From a virus: a stretch of 64,000 nt of DNA. The translations under genes were made by a program, and so were the position numbers. Below the pieces are notes generated by a model. The model was not told the DNA's origin, did no database searches, and saw only the letters and a program-made list of their open reading frames with translations. The stretch's first letter is position 1. Each line of letters starts with the position of its first letter. The stretch is from the IMG/VR virus record IMGVR_UViG_3300027509_000012. One strand, given 5' to 3'. Of the stretch, positions 15,491 to 51,467 are shown in pieces.

Positions 15491-15922
15491 ATGTTCACGA
15501 TAGATAAATTCGATGGTGATTACAGATGGTTGAGTAATTTCTATCCTACTGAAGTTACATATGAAGATATCAAGTACCCAACGGTTGAGAATGCTTATCA
15601 GGCAGCGAAAACACTTGATATACAGCAACGTGTACCATTTGAAATAATGACTCCTAGTGGAGCTAAGGCTGCGGGGAGAGCGCTTGTAATGCGCAAGGAT
15701 TGGAATTCAGTTAAATTGCATGTCATGAATCAATTAGTTTTTCAAAAATTCATGTTTAATGAAGATTTAAAAGAAAAATTAATGGAAACTGAAAACGATA
15801 TGATCGTTGAGGGGAATACTTGGAATGATACATTCTGGGGAGTATGCGAAGGTGAAGGTGAAAATCACTTGGGCCAATTAATAATGCAGACTCGAAATAT
15901 GATTCGGGCGTTTGGTTACTAA
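15491..15922 (+). CDS. NADAR (YbiA-like) protein
   Basis: WLSNFY...TVENAYQAAK...EGNTWNDTFWG...GENHLG. Confidence 0.92.
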   Translation: MFTIDKFDGDYRWLSNFYPTEVTYEDIKYPTVENAYQAAKTLDIQQRVPFEIMTPSGAKAAGRALVMRKDWNSVKLHVMNQLVFQKFMFNEDLKEKLMETENDMIVEGNTWNDTFWGVCEGEGENHLGQLIMQTRNMIRAFGY

Positions 15923-18680: not shown

Positions 18681-19907
18681 ATGTCTAATTTTGAAGTTAA
18701 AGTTGTACAAGTAACAATTGAAGAACATCCAAACGCTGATGCAATAGAGCTGGCAAACATTGCTGGCTTTCAATCTATTGTTAAAAAAGGTCAATGGAAA
18801 ACTGGTGATTGGGGTGCTTATATTCCTGAAGGTGCATTGCTTCCAGAGTGGCTTTTGAAACAAGAAGGTTTTTGGAAAGAAGAAAGTGGTAAGGGAATGC
18901 TCGCTGGTAGTCGTGGTGATCGCGTAAAGCCAGTAAAACTTCGTGGTGTACTGTCTGAGGGAATATTAATTAAACCACATCTAAAAGTTATGCCTGATTT
19001 TAAAGATCAAACGCTTTTCATATTTGGTCGTGAAAAAGAAGCCTATCTAGCCGACAAAGAAAAATTCAAGGCTGCGATATCAGATGAATATGATTTTGAA
19101 TGCCGAATGGATCATGTAGAAGATACCGTAACAGTTGAAGCTGGTGATGATGTTGCTGAATTTTTCGGCATCACTAAATGGGAACCACCTATCCCAATTC
19201 ACATGCAGGGTGCTCGTGAAAATGCTGATGGATGGACTATTAAATTTGATATAGAAAACTTTAAAAAATTTCCTGATGTATTGGGTATGGGTGAGCAAGT
19301 TGTAATCACCGAAAAACTACATGGTACATTTGCACAGTTTGGTTATGTACCAGATCTTGATCGTAAGATTGTTGCATCGAAAGGTCTTGCTGCTGCTGGC
19401 ACAATGCTAAAATCAAACGACGAAAACAAAGACAATCTTTACGTTAAGACTGCGTATCAAGCAGATGATGGTGAAGAAAGTATAATGGATAAAATTCAGC
19501 GCATTTCAGAGCAGAAGAAGGAACCATTTTATATATTAGGTGAAATATTTGGTCGTGGCATTCAAGATTTGATTTATGGTCAAGATAAGCCAGTGTTTCG
19601 AGCCTTTGATATGTACATCGGTCAGCCTCAACGTGGTCGTTACTTGAACTACAAAGAAATGCTTGAGATTTGTAAAGAATATGATATTCCACATGTGCCG
19701 ATTCTTTATACTGGTTCGTTTAACCACGAAGTGTTGGATGAATACACCAATGGTAAAGAAACTTTGTCTGGTAAGGAAAATAATATCCGTGAAGGAATTG
19801 TTATCAAGCCGTTTGAAGAACGTCCTGATGTAATGATCGGTAGAGTTATTCTTAAAAGTGTCAGTGAGAAATATCTGACCCGAAAGAATGGTACTGAATT
19901 AAATTAA
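18681..19907 (+). CDS. RNA ligase (DRB0094/Rnl5-type)
   Basis: EHPNADAIE N-domain; TEKLHGT, GEIFG, FRAFD, REGIV motifs. Confidence 0.92.
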   Translation: MSNFEVKVVQVTIEEHPNADAIELANIAGFQSIVKKGQWKTGDWGAYIPEGALLPEWLLKQEGFWKEESGKGMLAGSRGDRVKPVKLRGVLSEGILIKPHLKVMPDFKDQTLFIFGREKEAYLADKEKFKAAISDEYDFECRMDHVEDTVTVEAGDDVAEFFGITKWEPPIPIHMQGARENADGWTIKFDIENFKKFPDVLGMGEQVVITEKLHGTFAQFGYVPDLDRKIVASKGLAAAGTMLKSNDENKDNLYVKTAYQADDGEESIMDKIQRISEQKKEPFYILGEIFGRGIQDLIYGQDKPVFRAFDMYIGQPQRGRYLNYKEMLEICKEYDIPHVPILYTGSFNHEVLDEYTNGKETLSGKENNIREGIVIKPFEERPDVMIGRVILKSVSEKYLTRKNGTELN

Positions 19908-19971: not shown

Positions 19972-20580
19972 ATGTCAAAAAGTGATCGAATAAGAGAAAT
20001 GTTAATTGAAGGCATAAAACACAAAGAAATAAGCAATGAAGTAGGTGTAGCAAAATCAACAATATCTTATCATGCAAAGCAGTTAGGATTATCCAAGCAT
20101 ATGCCTACATATGATTTAATTAAAATGCAGGCACATTATGATGCTGGTAATACTATTAGAGAAACTATAAAACATTTTGGTTTAAATCGAAGTACATGGA
20201 ACAAATATGTAAGACTCAATAGAATTAAATTGGATAATACACCAGAGCGCGAAGCTTTATTAAAAGAATCTAGAAAAGTTGATAGTAGAAGCCATACAAT
20301 ACCTATTGACGAAATGTTTATCCGTAAATCTAATTCAAACACAACAACTATCAGAAACCGCATCAAAAGAGACAGTTTGATGATTTATTCATGTGATATG
20401 AAAAATTGTCCTTTGTATGGAATAATTAATCCCAAATGGTGCGGAAATGATTTAATTCTTCATTTGGATCATATCAATGGTGTATCGAATGATCATAGAC
20501 TTAAAAATTTAAGATGGTTATGTGCTAACTGTCACACACAAACCAGTACATATTGTGGTCGAAATATAAAAAACTATTGA
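19972..20580 (+). CDS. HNH homing endonuclease with N-terminal HTH
   Basis: LHLDHINGVSNDHRLKNLRWLCANCH. Confidence 0.92.
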   Translation: MSKSDRIREMLIEGIKHKEISNEVGVAKSTISYHAKQLGLSKHMPTYDLIKMQAHYDAGNTIRETIKHFGLNRSTWNKYVRLNRIKLDNTPEREALLKESRKVDSRSHTIPIDEMFIRKSNSNTTTIRNRIKRDSLMIYSCDMKNCPLYGIINPKWCGNDLILHLDHINGVSNDHRLKNLRWLCANCHTQTSTYCGRNIKNY

Positions 20581-20615
20581 CAAATTAATTACGACATAGT
20601 AAATTATTAATTAAT

Positions 20616-20707
20616 GGCTCCATAGCTCAGTTGGTAGAGCAAGGGATTCTAACCCCCTGATAGTAACTTATGTTGCAGCGTCGGTTCAAATCCGACTGGA
20701 GCCTCCA
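20616..20707 (+). tRNA. Amber suppressor tRNA (anticodon CUA) with long variable arm
   Basis: GGCTCCA/TGGAGCC-T-CCA acceptor; TAGCTCAGTTGGTAGAGC D-arm; loop TT-CTA-AC; GTCGG-TTCAAAT-CCGAC T-arm; TTGACA promoter at 20577. Confidence 0.85.
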
Positions 20708-20776
20708 TTTTATTTTGTAACAAGGAAGCTTTTATGAGTATTTTACTAAATACTAAAACAACAAAGGAAAATAACA

Positions 20777-20890
20777 ATGCATTAGATCAATTATTCAAGA
20801 GGGCCGCCCTCGACTCTATTTTTAAGCCTTGACAAAGGTAGTATGAAAAACTTTAAACCTAAATTTAATTATAGAGAGAAAACAACATGA
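20777..20890 (+). promoter_or_regulatory. Putative amber-readthrough leader peptide MH*INYSRGPP...
   Basis: AAGGA SD, ATG CAT TAG, then open frame to TGA overlapping ATG 20887. Confidence 0.5.
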
Positions 20891-21498
20891 ATAAAGTAAC
20901 AAAACCTCAACTGCCAATTAGTGGCACAGCGTTTATTAAAACAAAATCCGACTATTTACTGTTTATTGCCAATTGGAAACGAGTGGTAAAGCGTGATAGT
21001 GAAAGAGATTATGGTTCAACATTTGCATCATTAATGATTTTTCGAAATCTTGCTATTGGCAGTGATACATTCAAAGGATTTACTCCATCCCAAAAAATCA
21101 ACGTATTAAAAAACGGAAGAACATTTCTTTCTGGTTGGCTTGATGCGTATGATCTACTATGTAGTTCAATTAATCGAGTAAAGCAGGATTCCGATAGAAA
21201 ATCCAATCTCATTGATGATCTTAAAGAATTAATGGACGGTATTTCGGATGAAAGTATGAATGATTTCAATAACATTTATGCTGAACTCGTTCAACCAGTT
21301 AAATATAGTCACCTGAACTCGCGTAGCTATACTAGATGGATTCACGACCATTTAGTGACCGATATTGCATCTGGTGAGCATAAGCGCGTACAGACGATTA
21401 CAGAGATTCTAAACCACTACGATGGAAAACGAGAAACAGTTGAACCTGCAATGGAAGTAGCTGAAGTCGAAATTGACAGGCAAGCTGAAGTCGCGTAA
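20887..21498 (+). CDS. Hypothetical phage protein
   Basis: ORF track; KGFTP...KNG motif. Confidence 0.8.
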   Translation: MNKVTKPQLPISGTAFIKTKSDYLLFIANWKRVVKRDSERDYGSTFASLMIFRNLAIGSDTFKGFTPSQKINVLKNGRTFLSGWLDAYDLLCSSINRVKQDSDRKSNLIDDLKELMDGISDESMNDFNNIYAELVQPVKYSHLNSRSYTRWIHDHLVTDIASGEHKRVQTITEILNHYDGKRETVEPAMEVAEVEIDRQAEVA

Positions 21499-21576
21499 TA
21501 TAAATATTATCTATTAATATTTTTAACAAAATGGATTCTAAAATTAGAATCCATTTTTAATTGAGGATCATGAGTT

Positions 21577-22077: not shown

Positions 22078-23238
22078 ATGATAAACACAAAAAATATAAA
22101 AACATTTCTAGTCGGTGGTGCTGTAAGGGACCAAATTATCGGTGTGCCTGTGAAGGACCGAGATTGGGTTGTTGTCGGTGCAACTGTACAAGATATGATT
22201 GATGCTGGCTTCTCACAAGTTGGCAAAGACTTTCCAGTATTTCTCCACCCTGAAACTGGCGAAGAACATGCGCTTGCCAGAAAAGAACGTACAACTGGTG
22301 GTGCTCATGATGAATTTGAATTTAATGTTGATCCATCGGTTACACTGGAGGAAGACCTCGTGCGCAGGGATTGTACTATGAACGCTATTGCAATGGATGA
22401 TACTGGTAACTTCATAGATCCGTTTGGTGGTGTTGCTGATATTAAAAACAAAATCATACGTCATACATCAGATGCTTTCAAAGAAGATCCTGTTCGTATA
22501 TTGCGAGTTGCTAGATTCTTTGCAAGATTCGGTCACTTGGGATTTAAGATCGCACCAGAAACAATAGAACTAATGACTGATATGGTCAGTAATGGTGATG
22601 TGGAACATTTAGTTCCAGAACGTGTGTGGCAAGAAATGGAAGGTGCATTAGGTGAAAGAAGCCCAATGCTTTTCGTGCTTACAATGGCACTGGTCAAAGC
22701 ATGGGCTGATGTATGTCCAGAGCTTGAAGAAGTTGCTGATAATTTCTTTTTCAGTGGTATTGATTTTAATTCACTGTGTTCACACGATATGGAAAAGCCT
22801 GTTCGTATGGCAGTATTGTGCAAAGATCTAACACTAGATGAAGTCAATGGACTAGTAATGAGATTGAAGCTACCAAATGAGTTTTCTGAGCTTCTTCTCT
22901 CATGCGTGTGTGTTACGCCAAAAATAAAACATTCTACTGGTTGCAATGATTCAACTGTAATATTGAATACTATTAAGTTGATGGATTTTAGAAGAAATCC
23001 TGAAAAGGTTGAAACTCTATTACGTGTTGGTGAATTAACAGGTCAATTGTTCGGTCAAGGAAATTTTATCAGACTCATTGTTCAGCGGTTGTTGGACATT
23101 GATGAAGGTGGTGTTGCTAAGGCTACATCTGATCCTAAGAATATTCCAGATGCAATTAATTCAGCACGATTAAAAGCTATTGATGAACTGATGCAAGAAT
23201 TAAAGATTGATAGTAATCAGCAAATAATAGCAAATTAA
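22078..23238 (+). CDS. cca: tRNA CCA-adding nucleotidyltransferase
   Basis: VGGAVRD, DRDWVVVG, DLVRRDCTMNAIA, EDPVRILR. Confidence 0.95.
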   Translation: MINTKNIKTFLVGGAVRDQIIGVPVKDRDWVVVGATVQDMIDAGFSQVGKDFPVFLHPETGEEHALARKERTTGGAHDEFEFNVDPSVTLEEDLVRRDCTMNAIAMDDTGNFIDPFGGVADIKNKIIRHTSDAFKEDPVRILRVARFFARFGHLGFKIAPETIELMTDMVSNGDVEHLVPERVWQEMEGALGERSPMLFVLTMALVKAWADVCPELEEVADNFFFSGIDFNSLCSHDMEKPVRMAVLCKDLTLDEVNGLVMRLKLPNEFSELLLSCVCVTPKIKHSTGCNDSTVILNTIKLMDFRRNPEKVETLLRVGELTGQLFGQGNFIRLIVQRLLDIDEGGVAKATSDPKNIPDAINSARLKAIDELMQELKIDSNQQIIAN

Positions 23239-27852: not shown

Positions 27853-28383
27853 ATGTTAATTAATGAATTGTTTGAAGATAAATCTGATAAAGATGAAAAA
27901 GGTACATACGCTGCTGCTAGATTCTCACAAGAATCTAAAAATGCACTTACCAAGTATATCAAAAACAATAAAATAGTTAATTCTGTTGACATAAGCAAAC
28001 TCCATGCAACACTTTTATATAGCAGAGCTTATATAAAAGATTATAAACCAGTTGGTAAATATGATAAACCCATAGAGTGTAAACCTATGGGTTTTGAAAT
28101 TTGGCCTTCAAAGCCTGATGAGAAAACTGGTGAGAAATCAAATTGTCTAGTATTAAAACTAGATGCACCTGAATTTAAAGCTCGACATAAAGAATTAATG
28201 TCGAAGTATAAAGAAGCCACATACGATTTTCCCGAATTTAAAACACACGTTACGTTAAGTTACAGTGTTGATGATCTTGATCCTAAAGAATTACCTGAGT
28301 TTAATGATATACTATATTTAAATGAAGAATATAGTAAACCACTAGATTTAGATTGGGCTAAAAATAATACGGCCAAAAAGTAA
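27853..28383 (+). CDS. 2H phosphoesterase, T4 57B/Acb1-like
   Basis: GTYAAARFS, LHATLLYSR, ATYDFPEFKTHVTLSY. Confidence 0.85.
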   Translation: MLINELFEDKSDKDEKGTYAAARFSQESKNALTKYIKNNKIVNSVDISKLHATLLYSRAYIKDYKPVGKYDKPIECKPMGFEIWPSKPDEKTGEKSNCLVLKLDAPEFKARHKELMSKYKEATYDFPEFKTHVTLSYSVDDLDPKELPEFNDILYLNEEYSKPLDLDWAKNNTAKK

Positions 28384-34004: not shown

Positions 34005-34195
34005 GATTTCTTTTTGGGTGTCTCATGTACCACTGCATGAGAAAATGATCTATGACAGCATTTATCTAAAACTTCTTTTTGTTGGGCTTCGTTCATTGAA
34101 GCCCAATTATTAATTTCTTCTAAAGTTCTATAACAGCCTGCGCACCTACCATTGCGTATTTCGCATATACGAATACATGGTGATAGGTTAGCCAC
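34001..34195 (-). CDS. DUF1289-like Cys-rich protein
   Basis: SPCIRIC...CAGCYRTLEEINNW; GTG start overlapping the RNR end. Confidence 0.7.
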   Translation of the reverse strand: MANLSPCIRICEIRNGRCAGCYRTLEEINNWASMNEAQQKEVLDKCCHRSFSHAVVHETPKKKS

Positions 34196-36092
34196 ATTTA
34201 GATCCACCACAGTCAGCACAAACGCTACATCCGCTTTCATATCGAACGTTTTCACTTCCACATTCTAAGCAAGTCGCGTTTTCTACTTTTTCACCATCAT
34301 TGACATAACCTGATAGTAATTTCTTTATTGCATATGTGAATGATCCTGCCACTGCATTTTCACTTCGATCAAGAGTTGCTACGATATTCTTAATGAACAC
34401 GCCATGACGTAGATTGAGACTTACAAGACGTGCAACTTTATTAATGTTGTTATCTTTATTCATCTTCTTTACTTGATCATCAATGTGAACCTGTGGAATG
34501 CCTTTGGATATGGCAAGTTCTAAAAGAAGATCAACCGCTTCGTCTGCGACTAATGAAGTTTCTGTATAGTTTGATTTAACAAACAATGCAAATGGTCGAT
34601 TTGAATCTGGAAGCATACTGACAGTACAATATAGTTTCTTCTTTTCAGCTCGAAGTACTTTAACTTCTGCTGGTGATGATTCTGGTAATTTAACATCTTC
34701 TAAGATGATTTCTTCTTCATCTGGAGAAGCAGTCTTTTCTTCGGCGGCAGACAATACAGAAGTCATGGTATTAGCTCGGTATGTAGTTAACCCTTTCAGG
34801 ACTTCTGAATTATATCCATCAAGATAAAGATTTTTAAATTTTTCATATGGATAATCTTCTGGGATATTGATCGTTTTGGAACAACTAGAATCTATCCAAT
34901 AAGCAAATCCCTTTAAATCTATAAGATGATCTTCTACTGATAAATCTAGTGTCGAAACTGCCCAATCAGCATCTGGGTTCCATTCATTTGATTGATTTAA
35001 TGAATGTACACCATAATCTTCACACAGAGTTTCTTTTGTTAAGCCACGATTTGTGTCTATTTTATAAACCGTCCCATCTGGGCCGATGCCTTTAAGGATT
35101 GTTTCATCCCCCTCTTTTGTAAATTTAAACATTTCTGTTTCATGAAATTCACCTTCATACCATTTCGGACAAACATCAGCTATATCATCTGGCATAGAAT
35201 TTATAATACTTGTACGCACGTAAGATGGCATAAAGATTGGTTCTAAACCACCAGAAACAATATTAGCCGCTATTCCAGTGTTACCCGTAGGTTGAATAGA
35301 TAATAAGTTTGAATTTCGAATGCCAGTAGTTCGAAGTTTCTGCATATATTCTTCTGGGAGGTTTAATCTTTTTACAAATTCCGCTTCTGCGTGTAATTCG
35401 GGTTTGCAATAAGTATACATACCTCTTTCTATTGCCAAATCAATTGATGACATGTATGCTTGCTGTGCTATTGCCGACATAATTTGTTCTTTAATCACTT
35501 CTGCCTTTTCTGATCCAAATTTAACTTGTAACATATATAAAGCTGATCCCCAACCCATAATTCCAATACCGATTCGACGTTTATGATCGCGAGAATAATC
35601 ATATTCAGGTAATGGTGTTAAAGATACGTTGTTTACATTATCTAAAAACCTCACCAGATACGAAACAGTTTTTCTTAACTCAACAACATCGAAACCACTT
35701 TTATCTTCATTAATAAATTTAGTAAGATTGATACTAGACAAGCAACAAATACCACCTGATAATGCTAAAAGCTGCTCTCCACATGGGTTACTGGCTTTAA
35801 TTTTTTCGCTCGGTTCATACGTTGATGGTGCTAATTTATTTGCACGCTCTAAAAACAATACGCCGGGTTCTGCTCGATTATAAGTGCTTTGCATAATCAA
35901 ATCCCAAAGATAAGAAACTTTCACTGTTTTATGTACAATAACTGGATATTCTAATTCTTTCCAATCAGATAAAAATCCATTCCATTTTTCTGCATACATT
36001 TCATGTGTAGTATCAGGGAATTCTAAATTCCAATTCTCAAGTTCTTCAATTTCTTTATCTATATCTGCTATCTGCTGTTCAATATTATTCAT
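34188..36092 (-). CDS. nrdJ: Class II (B12-dependent) ribonucleotide reductase, C-terminal fragment
   Basis: EPG, NPCGEQ, CCLSSINL, RRIGIG, QPTG, SKTIN, C-terminal Zn ribbon and CGGSKCG. Confidence 0.9.
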   Translation of the reverse strand: MNNIEQQIADIDKEIEELENWNLEFPDTTHEMYAEKWNGFLSDWKELEYPVIVHKTVKVSYLWDLIMQSTYNRAEPGVLFLERANKLAPSTYEPSEKIKASNPCGEQLLALSGGICCLSSINLTKFINEDKSGFDVVELRKTVSYLVRFLDNVNNVSLTPLPEYDYSRDHKRRIGIGIMGWGSALYMLQVKFGSEKAEVIKEQIMSAIAQQAYMSSIDLAIERGMYTYCKPELHAEAEFVKRLNLPEEYMQKLRTTGIRNSNLLSIQPTGNTGIAANIVSGGLEPIFMPSYVRTSIINSMPDDIADVCPKWYEGEFHETEMFKFTKEGDETILKGIGPDGTVYKIDTNRGLTKETLCEDYGVHSLNQSNEWNPDADWAVSTLDLSVEDHLIDLKGFAYWIDSSCSKTINIPEDYPYEKFKNLYLDGYNSEVLKGLTTYRANTMTSVLSAAEEKTASPDEEEIILEDVKLPESSPAEVKVLRAEKKKLYCTVSMLPDSNRPFALFVKSNYTETSLVADEAVDLLLELAISKGIPQVHIDDQVKKMNKDNNINKVARLVSLNLRHGVFIKNIVATLDRSENAVAGSFTYAIKKLLSGYVNDGEKVENATCLECGSENVRYESGCSVCADCGGSKCG

Positions 36093-37618
36093 TATAGTGC
36101 CTTTAGTTTATATTTTATTAATCCACAATCCCATATTCTATAGAATCCATTATTTTTACAATTTACATATTCACTTACATTTTCATCATAGTTTTTTAAT
36201 TTCTTTTTTAATATAGATTTTCGAAATGAAAATTTATGTATTCGTTTTGTTCCTACTTTATATCTGTAATCAGGTTTAGTTATGTATTCAATTTTAAATC
36301 CAGTTTTTTCGTATAAATTACCGTTACTCCATCGACGATCTGCAAAGGTAAATAAATCATAATTTCTATATTTTGATATTATCTTAGAGAAACCACCAAC
36401 TACGTGTTTTGATGATGCATAGCGAGTAATCATTAATCCATCCTTTTCTTTTTTAAATAATGCAAGACATACTAATTCATCGTTATCATCAACTAGCCCG
36501 GTTCTAATGGATGATCCACCATATCCTTGAATATGATATTTAGACATAAAGTTTTTAGCTGAATCAACATCAATATTATATTTTATATTTGTTTTTCTGG
36601 CGTATACTTTCTCTCTATTATCTGTTTTTAATAAACTTAATATTTTAGATTTTACTAATTCTTTTGAATGTAACCATTCATCCTCAAAGATTGTAATAAG
36701 CTGAATTCCAACTTCTTCACACATTTGAGTTTTTCTTAAATGATATTTTTTGTCTATTTTATGCTCGATTGCTTCTGAATGCCAATAAAGTCCACAATAT
36801 TCAAACGCTATATTTTTATCAGGTATGTTTATGTCTAATTGATAAGGTGCAATTGTTTTATTGTCTGAAGTTATTATTGGGCAATCACAAATAGTATGAA
36901 TAAATTCAGATAATTCTCTTTCTTCTGTTGAAATAAAATGGGTTTTGGGTTTAATATTATGTTTATTAAAATATCGAGAAACCGTTGTTCTATTTACTGA
37001 AAGGTGATTTGCAATTTTACCCAAATGCATAGTTTTATTTAATTTTTTGAGTAATTCTACATTCATTAAATCATCATGTGGAAATTCTTCGTTTAAATGA
37101 TAATTATAATTTAGTGTGCCGAATTTATCAATCATTGTTTCCTGTTGTTTTTCTAAAAGTTTTTTATTCTTTAACGGAGAGGTCACTCCAAATTTATCAA
37201 TCATTCCATCAACAACTTTTTGTTTTCCTTCATCTGAACTAAAAAAATAATCTGAACCATATTTTTCTTTACATGTAGTTCTTATTTTATCGCTAACAAA
37301 ATTTGAGTTTGCGGAACATTTTAAAGAACAGAAACGATTATAACCTTTTATTCTACTAGGACTTGGTTTGTTGGCACGATCAACCCATGTAGTTATGTTT
37401 TCACAAGATTCATTACCACATATAATGGGTTCTTTAATATTAAGCCTAACATTATGTAGCTTTTGAAGGTGGGAAATATTTGATGGAAATTTTTCATTCC
37501 ATTGATCTAATAAATCAGAAACTGTAGAGTTACTTTTTAATAAGCGAACTGCTTTTTGACTAACTCTACCCGATTTAGTAATAATTCCAGCATCAATTAA
37601 GTGATCAGTTAAATTCAT
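36092..37618 (-). mobile_element. Free-standing Hef-like homing endonuclease gene inserted in nrdJ
   Basis: KYG/KFG repeats, QLDINIP...AFEYCGLYWH, YARK, TFADRRWS, IWDCG. Confidence 0.85.
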
Positions 37619-37619
37619 T

Positions 37620-38354
37620 TTATAGTTGTTTTTCTAATTCTACCTTTTTTGCTTTGAGTTCAGCTATTCGATTTACTCTGTCCATAAATGCATCGGTGCA
37701 ATTTACTGAAATATTAAATTTACTTAAACGGCCTGCGGTTTGTTTAGCAGTAATAAACTCAACAATATCTGGATGAGTTACATCAAGAATTCCCATCATC
37801 GCACCTTTGCGGATCTTAGTTTTCTTTGCAATGTTTTTAGAATCTGTGTCCGCACCAGCTCCACTGGTTATAACATCACTGCTTTTATCAAAAAGTTCCA
37901 TAAATTTTACAGCGCCGGGTGTGGCAGCACCAACTCCCATTATATCCGCACCACGAGGGCGAATATAAGAAAAATTCTCTCCCCAACCACCTTCACTTTT
38001 TAATGTCTGAGCTTGTGATCTTAAATGGGCCAAAATACCATCAAGTGAATCAATATCGTATTTTTCGGTTGGGCCAACAAAGCAATTAAATTGCGTAGTC
38101 TTACCATATCCAGCTCCAGCGTTTGATAAAATCCGGCCACCCGGCACGACTTTAAAGCCATTTAACATCTCATAAAAACGATCTTCCCAGACTTCTTTAT
38201 CTTTTTGGTTATCTTCTCCATCAGCGATTCCTTTAGCTACACGTTGAAAAGTGTCGTCTATCGTTTCGTCTGAGTGATACTTGTAAGTGGTTTCCCAGAT
38301 TTCTTGTGAAAAATCATTCGTAAATTCAGTTGGGGGCAGATTGGACTTTGACAT
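37620..38354 (-). CDS. nrdJ: Class II RNR, N-terminal fragment
   Basis: PGGRILSNAG, FNCFV, EGGWG, IRPRG, RKGAMM, HPDI, FNISV. Confidence 0.9.
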   Translation of the reverse strand: MSKSNLPPTEFTNDFSQEIWETTYKYHSDETIDDTFQRVAKGIADGEDNQKDKEVWEDRFYEMLNGFKVVPGGRILSNAGAGYGKTTQFNCFVGPTEKYDIDSLDGILAHLRSQAQTLKSEGGWGENFSYIRPRGADIMGVGAATPGAVKFMELFDKSSDVITSGAGADTDSKNIAKKTKIRKGAMMGILDVTHPDIVEFITAKQTAGRLSKFNISVNCTDAFMDRVNRIAELKAKKVELEKQL

Positions 38355-47649: not shown

Positions 47650-49248
47650 ATGAGTTACATTTCTGCTGTAAAGAAAAACGAAACAGTATTTGTTTGGGAG
47701 CGAGATAACGATGGTAACAGGGTAACTAAATCTTACCCTGCCCCGTTTTATTTTTACTCTGGCGATAAGAATGGAAAGCACACCAGTCTATATGGTGAAC
47801 CACTCGAACGCTATGATTTTACTTCCGACTCTGAGTTTTATAATACGAGAAAGAAAGCTATCCAACATGGATATGATTTGTATGAATCAGATATTCCACC
47901 AGAATTAAAAATCTTATCAGAACATTATTATAATGTTCCCGCACCCAAGCTAAATGTGACCTTCTACGATATAGAGGTTGATTACGATACTAGTATAGGA
48001 TTTAGTTCACCATCTAATCCATACGCGGCTGTGAACGCGATAGCTATGTTTCACACTCATAAAAACCAAATGGTAGTTATTGCCATCCCACCAAAAGATG
48101 CCAACTGTGATGTGCCTGACGTTGGTGTTGCTGGTGAAGATTACATTAAAAAAATGAACGACATTACTCCCATTATAGATGGAGTAGACATTGTGATAGA
48201 ATTCTATAAAACTGAAAAAGAAGTTCTTGAACGGTTTTTATTAGAAATCGAAGATACTGATTTAATATGTGGTTGGAACAACAGTGGATTTGATGATCCA
48301 TACATGGGCAAGCGATTAGAATTAATGGGTAAGAAATATTTTAATAAAATGTCATTTGTTGATGCTCCCAATCCGAAATGGAAAATGGTTGAAATTTTTG
48401 GTAAGGAACAACCAGTCATAGAATTGTTTGGTAGAGTATCATTAGATTATCTTACGCTGTTTAAAAAGTATATGATTGAAAATCAACCATCATATAAACT
48501 AGATAACATTGCAGATAAGTTCTTACGTACTGATGGCAAGCCAGATATGCCAAAATTGGAATACGAAGGATCGCTAGCTAGATTATATAAGGATGATTTT
48601 GATTATTTCATTCGATACAATATCCGTGATACAGAAATTCTGTTTGGTTTTGAAAATAAATTAAAATATGTTGCGCTGGCTAATGAAATGGTGCATTTAT
48701 CTACTGGTTTATTTCAACACGTAGCTGGAACAATCAAATTGCACGAACTATCTGTAATAAATTATTGCCATCACGAAATGGGTGGAGTAATCGTTAACGA
48801 TAAAAGAGATAATGATTGGGGTGAAGAAAAAATCAAAGGTGCAATTGTTTTAGATCCTGTTACTGGAATGCATGAATGGAGTAGTTCAATAGATTTAAAT
48901 AGTCTATATCCTTCTGTAATTCGTGCTAATAATATATCACCAGAAACAAAAATAGGACAATTTAAATTAGAAGAAGCTGCGGTGGACCACATTCGAAGAA
49001 AGAGTGATACCCAATTGATATTTGAAAAGGTTAACGGAAAGATAATATCAAAAACTGGAGCTGATTGGAGGAAGTATTTACTTGATCATAATTGGTGTAT
49101 TAGTGGATTTGGCACAGTGTTTAATATGAATAAGCAGGGAGTTGTTCCTAAAATTTTGGAAGATTGGTATGCTAAAAGAAAAACGTATCAAAAACAAATG
49201 ATAGAAGCTAAAGATGCTGCTGCCAAAATATTAGAGAAGTATAAGTAA
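47650..49248 (+). CDS. Family B DNA polymerase, N-terminal part (exonuclease and palm A)
   Basis: YDIEVD, GWNNSGFDDPY, YNIRD, DLNSLYPS. Confidence 0.93.
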   Translation: MSYISAVKKNETVFVWERDNDGNRVTKSYPAPFYFYSGDKNGKHTSLYGEPLERYDFTSDSEFYNTRKKAIQHGYDLYESDIPPELKILSEHYYNVPAPKLNVTFYDIEVDYDTSIGFSSPSNPYAAVNAIAMFHTHKNQMVVIAIPPKDANCDVPDVGVAGEDYIKKMNDITPIIDGVDIVIEFYKTEKEVLERFLLEIEDTDLICGWNNSGFDDPYMGKRLELMGKKYFNKMSFVDAPNPKWKMVEIFGKEQPVIELFGRVSLDYLTLFKKYMIENQPSYKLDNIADKFLRTDGKPDMPKLEYEGSLARLYKDDFDYFIRYNIRDTEILFGFENKLKYVALANEMVHLSTGLFQHVAGTIKLHELSVINYCHHEMGGVIVNDKRDNDWGEEKIKGAIVLDPVTGMHEWSSSIDLNSLYPSVIRANNISPETKIGQFKLEEAAVDHIRRKSDTQLIFEKVNGKIISKTGADWRKYLLDHNWCISGFGTVFNMNKQGVVPKILEDWYAKRKTYQKQMIEAKDAAAKILEKYK

Positions 49249-51467
49249 TGCCAATTAGAAAAGGAATAAAAATAAGCAAAGAAGATGCAATTGAATATGA
49301 TCGTTTAATTGCGGAAGCTGAATACGCAGACAGAATTCAGTATGTACTGAAAATAAAATTGAATGGTTTTTACGGCGCACTTTCTAATCAACACTTCAAA
49401 TTTGGTGATAGAACATTGGGTGAATCTACAACTGCTGGTGGGAGACATATAGTAACGCATCAACATCGAAAAGTTAATGAACTTTTGGCTGAAGAATATG
49501 ATGAATTTGGTGATGGTATCATATATGGAGATTCAGTAGCTGGTGATACTATTATAAAAACTTCTACTGAATCATTAAAAATTGAAGAATTATTTACCCA
49601 TATAGATGAAATAAAGAATAATAAAGAATATTGCAATCGTGGTGATATAAAATCATTAACCTTTAATGAAGCCACTCAACAAAATGAATATGGAACTATA
49701 AAATACGTAGTTCGTCATGCAGCAAAAAAACAAATGTATCGCATTCATTATGGAAACTTGCGCTATATTGATGTTTCTGAAGATCATTCTCTTATTGGAT
49801 ATGCTAATACTAAATCAAAAACACCCGGTCAATTAGTCAATGTAAAACCTACAGAAATAGGCAAGAATGGTATTAATAGTATGTTATTGAATACTAATAA
49901 TTTACACACACCAACTGATATTACTGAATATCCAAAAGAGTTATATATATTAATGGGTCTTGTATTGGGTGATGGATATGCCGATAATAAAACAAACGGT
50001 TGTACACATTTGTCCACTGGATCTAAAGATAAAGAAGAAATCGTTAAACATGTATTAAATCCCCTGATAGATGCCGGGTGGATTACTAGTATTGGTCATA
50101 GAAAAAATGATCATGATATTAATTTACACGGTGCAAAATTAAGAGTGTTCTTACGTAATCATTTATATGATGATGAATCTATAATAAAAAAAATTCCTGA
50201 TTTTTTATATAATGATTCAATTGAACATATTGGATTATTTTTAAATGGGTTATTTACCGCTGATGGTACTGTCATCAAGGGGATTCCAAGATTATCTTCA
50301 ATAACGATTAATCATATTACTGGTGCAAATGAACTACTTAAATTGTGTGGTATTGGTTCTAATTTTTGGCAAGAAAATACCGAAAATTCATATGATGGAA
50401 TTAAATCTGGAACATTTAGTATTATTCTTAACGTATATGATGCTGTCAGATTTGAACAACTTGTTGGTTTTTCTTTAATAAGAAAACATAACGCAATTAA
50501 ACTCGATTGTAGTACTAGAAAAATACATTTAATTGGTCAAAATGGTTATACGCATATAACTCCCACTAATATAGAAAAGATAGAATCACCAAAATATATT
50601 TACGATATTGAAGTGGAAAATACCCATATGTTTTATGGTAACGATATATTGTTACACAACACTGATTCAACCTACTTTCATACTTTCACTGATAATACAG
50701 AAGATGCTCGTGAAGTAGGAGATGCTATTGCTGATGGTGTAAATAAATCATTTTCTAAATTCATGAAAGAATCATTCTTAATAAATGATGATTTTGATGG
50801 AATAATTCAGTGTGGCCGTGAGATTGTTTCCAAGCGTGGTATTTTTGTCATGAAAAAGAAATACATGCTTCATCTAGTTGATCTAGATGGTTATGATGTA
50901 GACAAACTAAAAGTAATGGGCTTAGATACAAAGCGAACCACAATCCCAAAAACAATATCCACAAAACTAGAAAAATTCATAGAACGATTGCTTAAAGGTG
51001 AGTCGTGGGATGATATTGAACAAGATATTGTTGATTATAAAGATGAATTATTAACTGGAGAAAGTATTCTGGATATCGGAATACCATCTGGAGTTAATAA
51101 GATAGAAGAATACACACAAGCTCTAAAGCTAGATCCAAAGACTTATTTGCCCGGCACTGTTGCGCCCTGTATACACTATAATCAGTGTAGAGAGCTGCAT
51201 AACGACAATGAGAGTCCCATGATAACTTCTGGAATGAAAACAAAGAAGTTTTTCTTAAAAAAGAAGAATGGTAGATTTGGAACTATTTCATTGCCAACTG
51301 ATATGACAATATACGAAATCCCTGAATGGTTTAAGGATTTTGAAATTGATAAAGACACTCACATGGATCGACTTGTCGATGCTCCAATTAATAATGTTAT
51401 TAAGGCTATTGGTGAAGAATCACCAACAAAGCAAAGTATGCATTTAAAATCTTTATTTGAATTCTAA
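49248..51467 (+). CDS. Family B DNA polymerase, C-terminal part, contains an intein
   Basis: KIKLNGFYG, YGD-intein-TDS, KKKY. Confidence 0.93.
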   Translation: MPIRKGIKISKEDAIEYDRLIAEAEYADRIQYVLKIKLNGFYGALSNQHFKFGDRTLGESTTAGGRHIVTHQHRKVNELLAEEYDEFGDGIIYGDSVAGDTIIKTSTESLKIEELFTHIDEIKNNKEYCNRGDIKSLTFNEATQQNEYGTIKYVVRHAAKKQMYRIHYGNLRYIDVSEDHSLIGYANTKSKTPGQLVNVKPTEIGKNGINSMLLNTNNLHTPTDITEYPKELYILMGLVLGDGYADNKTNGCTHLSTGSKDKEEIVKHVLNPLIDAGWITSIGHRKNDHDINLHGAKLRVFLRNHLYDDESIIKKIPDFLYNDSIEHIGLFLNGLFTADGTVIKGIPRLSSITINHITGANELLKLCGIGSNFWQENTENSYDGIKSGTFSIILNVYDAVRFEQLVGFSLIRKHNAIKLDCSTRKIHLIGQNGYTHITPTNIEKIESPKYIYDIEVENTHMFYGNDILLHNTDSTYFHTFTDNTEDAREVGDAIADGVNKSFSKFMKESFLINDDFDGIIQCGREIVSKRGIFVMKKKYMLHLVDLDGYDVDKLKVMGLDTKRTTIPKTISTKLEKFIERLLKGESWDDIEQDIVDYKDELLTGESILDIGIPSGVNKIEEYTQALKLDPKTYLPGTVAPCIHYNQCRELHNDNESPMITSGMKTKKFFLKKKNGRFGTISLPTDMTIYEIPEWFKDFEIDKDTHMDRLVDAPINNVIKAIGEESPTKQSMHLKSLFEF
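49533..50660 (+). mobile_element. Intein (376 aa) with LAGLIDADG endonuclease in the YGDTDS motif
   Basis: Begins SVAGDT, block B SEDHS, LMGLVLGDG and FLNGLFTADG, ends LLHN|T. Confidence 0.93.

Follow-up and report, generated by a model that had tools for sequence, protein, structure and literature searches.

A likely translational switch formed by an amber-interrupted mini-leader behind a suppressor tRNA gene in a jumbo-phage contig

We analyzed a 64,000-nt stretch of viral DNA (IMG/VR record IMGVR_UViG_3300027509_000012; hereafter, the window), which is part of a 302-kb contig with jumbo-phage replication genes. At 20577-21557, a tRNA gene with the anticodon CUA is followed by an amber-interrupted mini-leader and then by a gene for a 203-aa protein, ORF203 (Table 1). 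Read with the standard code, the leader comprises a Shine-Dalgarno (SD) sequence, ATG-CAT-TAG (20777-20785, with TAG at 20783-20785), INYS, and RGPP (20798-20809, with Pro-Pro at 20804-20809), and its read-through frame runs to a TGA at 20888-20890 that overlaps the ORF203 start codon as ATGA. All elements named in the original prediction were present base for base, including the GAGGG-CCG-CCCTC hairpin and the overlapping 32-codon ORF that it had also cited. The sigma70-like scan of the window returned 15 sites vs 11.6 expected, and the site ahead of the tRNA is not significant alone. TAAATA was enriched in window intergenic DNA (32 sites vs 13.6 expected by area, without AT-content correction). 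The inverted repeat behind ORF203 is possibly the end of the transcript.

Table 1. Features of the locus, with positions in the window
Feature	Position	Strand	Basis or remark
Sigma70-like promoter, TTGACA-17-TAAATT	20577..20605	+	Directly ahead of tRNA; consensus match only, 10/12
Amber-suppressor tRNA gene, anticodon CUA	20616..20707	+	ARAGORN; Rfam RF00005, 57.9 bits
Overlapping 32-codon ORF	20734..20832	+	Start predicted occluded
TAAATA, candidate phage late-type promoter element	20747..20752	+	25 nt before leader
Leader Shine-Dalgarno, AAGGA	20764..20768	+	Sequence
Amber-interrupted leader, M-H-(TAG)-I-N-Y-S-R-G-P-P	20777..20809	+	Sequence
GAGGG-CCG-CCCTC hairpin over Gly-Pro-Pro codons	20799..20811	+	Flagged terminator-like by scan
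Anti-RBS strand, CTCTAT	20814..20819	+	Covered by ribosome with second Pro in A site
ATAGAG, pairing partner in ORF203 RBS region	20871..20876	+	Fold prediction
ORF203, putative regulated gene, 203 aa	20887..21498	+	ORF list; helical model; N-domain relatives
Perfect 12-bp inverted repeat after ORF203	21528..21557	+	Seen in sequence; absent from terminator-scan list

The neighbors of this cassette in the window are an RNA ligase gene (18681-19907), an HTH-HNH endonuclease gene (19972-20580) that lies between the ligase and the tRNA and overlaps the tRNA promoter with its 3' end, and a gene for a CCA-adding enzyme (tRNA nucleotidyltransferase, 22078-23238); no Pth2-like gene was found beside the cassette. 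Further, we identified an Acb1 anti-CBASS gene (27853-28383; PF23474, 106 bits) and a NADAR gene (15491-15922). The ribonucleotide reductase large subunit (34188-38354) is encoded by 2 ORFs around a homing endonuclease and the DNA polymerase (47650-51467) by 2 abutting ORFs with an unmatched insert, and both splits are likely intron or intein insertions.

The tRNA (20616-20707) has a long variable arm, an encoded CCA, and an A31.C39 mismatch closing the anticodon stem, and its fold had a z-score of -3.9. ARAGORN labeled it "Pyl," a label that reflects the anticodon alone. The shape of tRNA-Pyl includes a short variable loop, and the pyrrolysine system includes PylRS; we rejected such a system on the basis of the long variable arm and of the missing pyl genes, none of which was found among the 44 window ORFs scanned plus the other ORFs profiled in the 64-kb window. 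Amber recoding (code 15) was also rejected, with TAG ending 8 of the 90 window ORFs of at least 80 aa and coding density at 0.79, vs 0.80 with TAG as sense (64 of 302 kb examined). The window uses the standard code and is not recoded.

A leader of the form SD, start codon, TAG, and Pro-Pro or Pro-stop appeared in 1 of 3000 dinucleotide shuffles of 20708-20886, and in 0 of 3000 when R[AG]PP was required. Only 1 of 93 window genes, namely ORF203, has an upstream element of this form, and the leader RGPP is the sole R[AG]PP, R[AG]GP, or RAP[GP] motif across the 6 frames of the window. The matching contig of a sequencing run that is possibly the window's own source had no alternative letter at the TAG (depth 54).

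The structure model of ORF203 is all-helical (pLDDT 83). No Pfam or PHROG family and no release factor matched the protein, and a Foldseek search of the model against the PDB returned no match at E <= 0.001; an assignment to DUF932/DUF3871 from the ESM Atlas (0.92 by features, from a poor model) lacked Pfam support and was taken as no more than a lead. Searches of viral contigs, metagenome contigs, and cultured phages found no DNA loci for ORF203 or its 10 closest protein relatives (P0002-P0011), and its link to the leader families therefore rests on a remote profile match, in which residues ~16-93 are related to proteins located behind the same leader type elsewhere. A scan for a tRNA plus ATG-NNN-TAG, blind to the prolines and to the downstream gene, yielded at least 2 loci (L286 and L408) with downstream proteins matching the ORF203 family profile (79.6%, E 1.5e-5), and a protein search with these 2 products added 4 contigs and 18 cultured-phage records, 4 of which were examined. 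A 9-protein bridge set matched the ORF203 family profile in hhalign with 93.6% and an E value of 2e-7 over 80 columns (residues 16-93), and the ORF203 protein itself scored 13.6 bits in this comparison, a score reached by 0 of 2000 shuffles.

The original prediction had proposed that the leader and tRNA-CUA be sought together around ORF203 homologs, and for remote homologs this association was found. All 8 non-seed loci of the N-domain relatives (L511-L518), retrieved by protein alone, carry M-x-TAG followed in frame by xPP, the proline motif being RAPP, RDPP, RGPP, or TGPP, and tRNA-CUA lies directly upstream in 4 of the 8. Four cultured jumbo phages in this set have a tRNA-Gly directly upstream of the leader instead, with tRNA-CUA ~17-18 kb from the leader in 3 of them. 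In L518, the leader is present and tRNA-CUA was not found with one search pattern; an HNH gene is also upstream of the leader there. Gene callers do not detect the leader, which is, thus, unannotated in the cultured jumbo phages GAP32, CBB, BF, and BUCT-ZZ01. In the 5 cultured phages with the most similar DNA polymerases (33-43% identity), neither leader nor family gene was found with a pattern that required GGA and would miss GAP32-type leaders.

A second leader-bearing protein family emerged from a pattern scan for SD-ATG-NNN-TAG-gap-RGPP, which returned 120 loci, mostly chance matches, including 80 with full flanks that represent 59 distinct leaders. Seven of these 59 precede one small protein family, 6 of the 7 having tRNA-CUA, whereas 0 of 32 distinct leaders preceded it in a control scan with TAA in place of TAG. 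Two matches were discarded: L202, the only TAA match accompanied by a suppressor-like tRNA call ("tta"), turned out to combine the end of a gene with a piece of a tRNA, and L245 falls within coding DNA of the opposite strand, where it is out of frame. To avoid the circularity of the pattern scan, the second family was searched by its downstream proteins only, and we examined 25 loci, comprising 6 cultured-phage records out of 11, the 5 left out being additional DLP5 and OLIVR records, and 19 viral loci out of 21, with L133 and L135 set aside as apparent duplicates; 5 of the 25 were seeds. A leader headed by an SD and interrupted by a stop, with Pro-Pro or Pro-stop after it, was present in 20/20 non-seed loci, the leader loci not being phylogenetically independent. 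The stop was an in-frame TAG in 18, TGA with the motif in the +1 frame in 2, and TAA in none, and a CTA tRNA was identified in the locus for 17 of the 18 in-frame-TAG cases, the remaining one having a "ccta" call. Shuffled upstream regions of this family gave a leader in 2 of 2500 trials.

The second-family protein was also modeled as helical (pLDDT 88), and the ESM Atlas held no match for the family. Direct hhalign of the ORF203-relative profile against the second family gave 0.2-0.3%, and passage through the 9-protein bridge set gave 22%, a sequence comparison that suggests a weak link between them. In one sub-family, a Pth2-like gene adjoins the regulated gene, with 9 of 12 scanned matching PF01981 at E <= 0.008 and 5 above cut-off. 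The order in L136-L147 and L185 is leader, small gene, Pth2-like gene, and then tRNA-CUA in most loci, and the small gene's stop codon overlaps the start of the Pth2-like gene. Upstream of position 1333 in L146, tandem Ser-Pro-Pro units follow the amber codon with a second TAG between them, possibly a double gate.

The arrest motif RGPP, central to the original prediction, proved not to be conserved: it occurred in 0 of 18 non-seed in-frame second-family leaders and in 2 of 8 (plus one RAPP) among the ORF203 relatives, and the dominant leader motifs were KPP, TGPP, RSPP, RDPP, and xSP-stop. Pro-Pro or Pro-stop was retained in 28/28 non-seed loci of both families. The constant feature is this proline motif, and RGPP is the form that a less strict signal takes in the window. 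Among the matches listed, an in-frame Pro-Pro occurred in 4 of 25 ATG-NNN-TAG matches behind tRNA-CUA and in 1 of 115 behind tRNA-Arg(TCT) (Fisher p 0.004), leaving 21 of the 25 without Pro-Pro, some of them genes with TAG at codon 3. In 6 loci among the matches listed (L295, L296, L381, L386, L357, and L444), the gene behind tRNA-CUA itself starts M-x-TAG and continues in frame, and 2 of these genes resemble Pth2-like genes by eye; in such an arrangement, the amber codon would gate the gene directly, with no stall involved.

We also found a sister class, in which the stop is TAGA (L001, L020, L063, L068, L152, L154, L188, L190, L193, L194, L344, and L385) or TGAA (L121 and L131) and Pro-Pro follows in the +1 frame. 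The anticodon arm favored a 7-nt loop at 22 of the 24 in-frame loci, and 7 of the 8 +1-frame loci favored an 8-nt loop; the +1-class tRNAs carry TCTA or TTCA loops, and the TGAA locus L131 has a TTCA-loop tRNA. An exception is L124, with an in-frame leader and an even-loop tRNA; in this locus (724-800, from Agrobacterium phage OLIVR1), a tRNA with an even CCTA loop, annotated as Val, stands before an amber leader with 2 TAGs. That anticodon loop and leader frame change together is the strongest indirect indication of a functional partnership between tRNA and leader, and the +1-class tRNAs are candidate natural 4-base decoders. The window tRNA ties 4:4 between the 7- and 8-nt loop registers, and the window prolines are reachable by triplet reading only, 4-base reading missing them.

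In both the minimum free energy and the centroid folds of the window, the CTCTAT strand pairs with ATAGAG, and the start codon of ORF203 is paired too; the window leader fold alone reached only a z-score of -1.55. We calculated the cost of opening the ribosome-binding site (RBS) as an ensemble energy with the ribosome footprint forced single-stranded at the stop vs at the prolines, and applied this test to 35 related leaders (25 second-family loci and 10 pattern-found loci). With the ribosome at the prolines rather than at the stop, the mean gain in RBS opening was 5.8 kcal/mol vs 0.55 kcal/mol for shuffles. The gain exceeded the locus's own shuffle mean in 33 of 35 loci and fell in the top 10% of shuffles in 27 but not in the other 8; L146 and L068 showed no energy gain. 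As these loci are related, the p-value of the comparison overstates their independence. In the window, the cost dropped from 5.6 to 1.7 kcal/mol (gain 3.9), and 1 of 60 shuffles did as well. Because the modeled proline-paused ribosome cheapens RBS opening, read-through likely corresponds to the ON state, the direction that the original prediction had assigned and with which the energetics of 33/35 loci and the window agree.

The same calculations bear on whether the leader is a chance or decayed element, inactive in the phage, with ORF203 expressed otherwise, from TTGACA at 20829 or by way of the 32-codon ORF. A ribosome ending that ORF would lower the ORF203 RBS cost from 6.1 to 2.8, and the A.C mismatch closing the anticodon stem of the tRNA also fits decay. 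The start of the 32-codon ORF, however, is predicted to be occluded (opening costs 8.7 kcal/mol, against 1.1 for that of the amber leader), the promoter scan made no call at 20829, and the family layout is preserved in full, at the chance rate of 1/3000 obtained above. We regard decay as highly improbable. Transcription attenuation is another very unlikely account; here, the GC hairpin over Gly-Pro-Pro plus a T-run would be a weak terminator, blocked by a stalled or passing ribosome. The hairpin and its tail were indeed flagged as terminator-like, but the stem is 5 bp with a 3-nt loop, the T-run begins 8 nt downstream, and the scan found 2 such sites vs 0.9 expected. Gly-Pro codons are, moreover, inherently self-complementary, and RBS occlusion alone accounts for the family data.

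Translational coupling would dispense with the stall: a read-through ribosome would run 36 further codons, unwind the helix, and re-initiate at the ATGA. The window frame ends exactly there, as the original prediction had pointed out, and some phages have TAG at codon 3 of the gene itself, right behind tRNA-CUA. The overlap, although present at 20887, recurs in only 4 of the 35 other leaders, 1 leader being in frame with its gene, and is probably secondary. Most leaders end at or a few codons past the prolines, 45-93 nt before the gene, and coupling has no need of the Pro-Pro or Pro-stop that all non-seed loci retain, which makes it an unlikely explanation.

The arrangement of amber gate, adjacent suppressor tRNA, and proline site over an anti-RBS strand, as originally predicted, recurs in dozens of other, distant phage loci, and we consider the locus to be, quite probably, a translational ON switch, in which read-through of UAG by tRNA-CUA and a proline pause open the ORF203 RBS. 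By default, release factor 1 (RF1) would terminate ribosomes at leader codon 3, and the ORF203 RBS would remain paired in the predicted helix. Charged phage tRNA-CUA would carry some ribosomes through UAG, and these would pause on Pro-Pro and keep the anti-RBS strand open, allowing ORF203 to be translated. Output would follow the contest between charged suppressor tRNA and RF1, rising as the tRNA accumulates or RF1 weakens. The sequence, its recurrence, the co-occurrence, and the fold energetics are results of the analysis, and the charging of the tRNA, read-through, stalling, and the direction in vivo are inferred; the stall would be best described as a short Pro-Pro/Pro-stop pause, taking the RGPP form in the window.

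The original prediction had further proposed a sensor of suppressor tRNA integrity or RF1 activity. Competition with the release factor, or a timer, fits the ON switch better than an integrity alarm does, since the gene would stay off once the tRNA is lost. An alarm of the opposite sign, an OFF switch in which the leader reports tRNA cleavage by anticodon nucleases and output rises on tRNA loss, would suit a cassette flanked by RNA ligase and tRNA nucleotidyltransferase genes, with Acb1 and NADAR genes nearby; the fold energetics are opposite in 33/35 loci and the window, where the RBS stays paired without read-through, and such an alarm seems quite improbable. More speculatively, and with less than even confidence, the ON switch may be one instance of a widespread, unannotated phage termination sensor. 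In such a sensor, a dedicated stop-reading tRNA (3-base for UAG, or 4-base for UAGA/UGAA in sister loci) would compete with RF1/RF2 on the mini-leader, and the proline stall would induce a small helical protein, in many cases together with a Pth2-like peptidyl-tRNA hydrolase, to rescue translation once release factors are disabled by host defense or stress. If true, this would give a purpose to the orphan suppressor tRNAs of standard-code phages and a source of natural quadruplet-decoding tRNAs.

Among known systems, prfB (RF2) reports release-factor activity through a +1 frameshift at an early internal stop, bypass of which gives expression; it uses a slippery codon and an internal SD within the regulated gene and no dedicated tRNA. 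Some leaders among the relatives share with it the use of +1 at TAGA/TGAA. The window locus is unlike prfB in its separate leader, frame-0 motif, contest of phage tRNA with factor, and stall relay, and in ORF203 having no release-factor match. It resembles translational attenuators in that the strand under the stalled ribosome is predicted to pair with the RBS of the next gene.

The arrest peptides with RAPP/RGPP motifs described in the main text of PMC12992588 include ApdA, ApdP, ApcA, SecM, CruR, and S. lividans examples. RGPP is given there as the strongest arrest motif across contexts, RSPP and RDPP as permissive, and the motif alone as insufficient, ApdA/ApdP-class arrest requiring N-terminal context (PMC12992588). 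Like these peptides, the window leader places RGPP, with Pro-Pro predicted at the P and A sites, ahead of a co-oriented gene with proposed control of that gene, and its RAPP-like core motif is in frame after read-through. The described peptides are longer ORFs, mostly with localization signals or sensor domains, whose default state is arrest, relieved by a signal, whereas the window leader has 11 codons, with just 7 residues before the Arg and no N-terminal, localization, or sensor region, its motif is reached only after stop read-through, and its family keeps xPP or xP-stop. Membership in the ApdA/ApdP class, as originally predicted, is thus not upheld: since the motif is insufficient alone and RGPP is loosely kept, the leader is better termed an arrest-peptide-like attenuator. 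The main text of PMC12992588 makes no mention of phage, amber, suppressor, or stop codon.

According to the accessible text of 10.1101/2022.06.29.495998 and PMC13037316, phage suppressor tRNAs are tied to recoding, with Sup-CTA tRNA gating late genes in amber-recoded (code 15) phages and read-through serving as timing. The window shares with such phages a tRNA-CUA upstream of a gene that would need it and differs in having a single TAG in a leader and no recoding. Together with its relatives, the locus points to a second use for phage suppressor tRNAs, in which one tRNA and one planted stop would feed a switch. Engineered circuits also combine a suppressor tRNA with a planted amber codon for control of expression, as described in the accessible text of PMC7969014 and PMC13276491; these are synthetic, place the amber codon in the output gene or a regulator, and have no stall-and-unfold relay. 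A phage leader gated by a suppressor tRNA was not described in the literature searched, in which subscription papers were poorly covered. The locus is real and conserved, and its likely mechanism would be a variant of translational attenuation with an input not found in print within that search. The role of suppressor tRNAs becomes directly testable here with a 150-nt reporter, and the regulated genes point to an unstudied protein superfamily that is likely tied to translation, with the +1 class as a source of candidate natural 4-base decoders.

The C-terminal residue is Ala in ORF203 (window 21490-21498) and in 21 of the 36 other regulated proteins, often as part of Ala-Ala. Ala-Ala ends resemble ClpX-type degradation tags, and by this analogy the Ala-ending regulated proteins are possibly short-lived.
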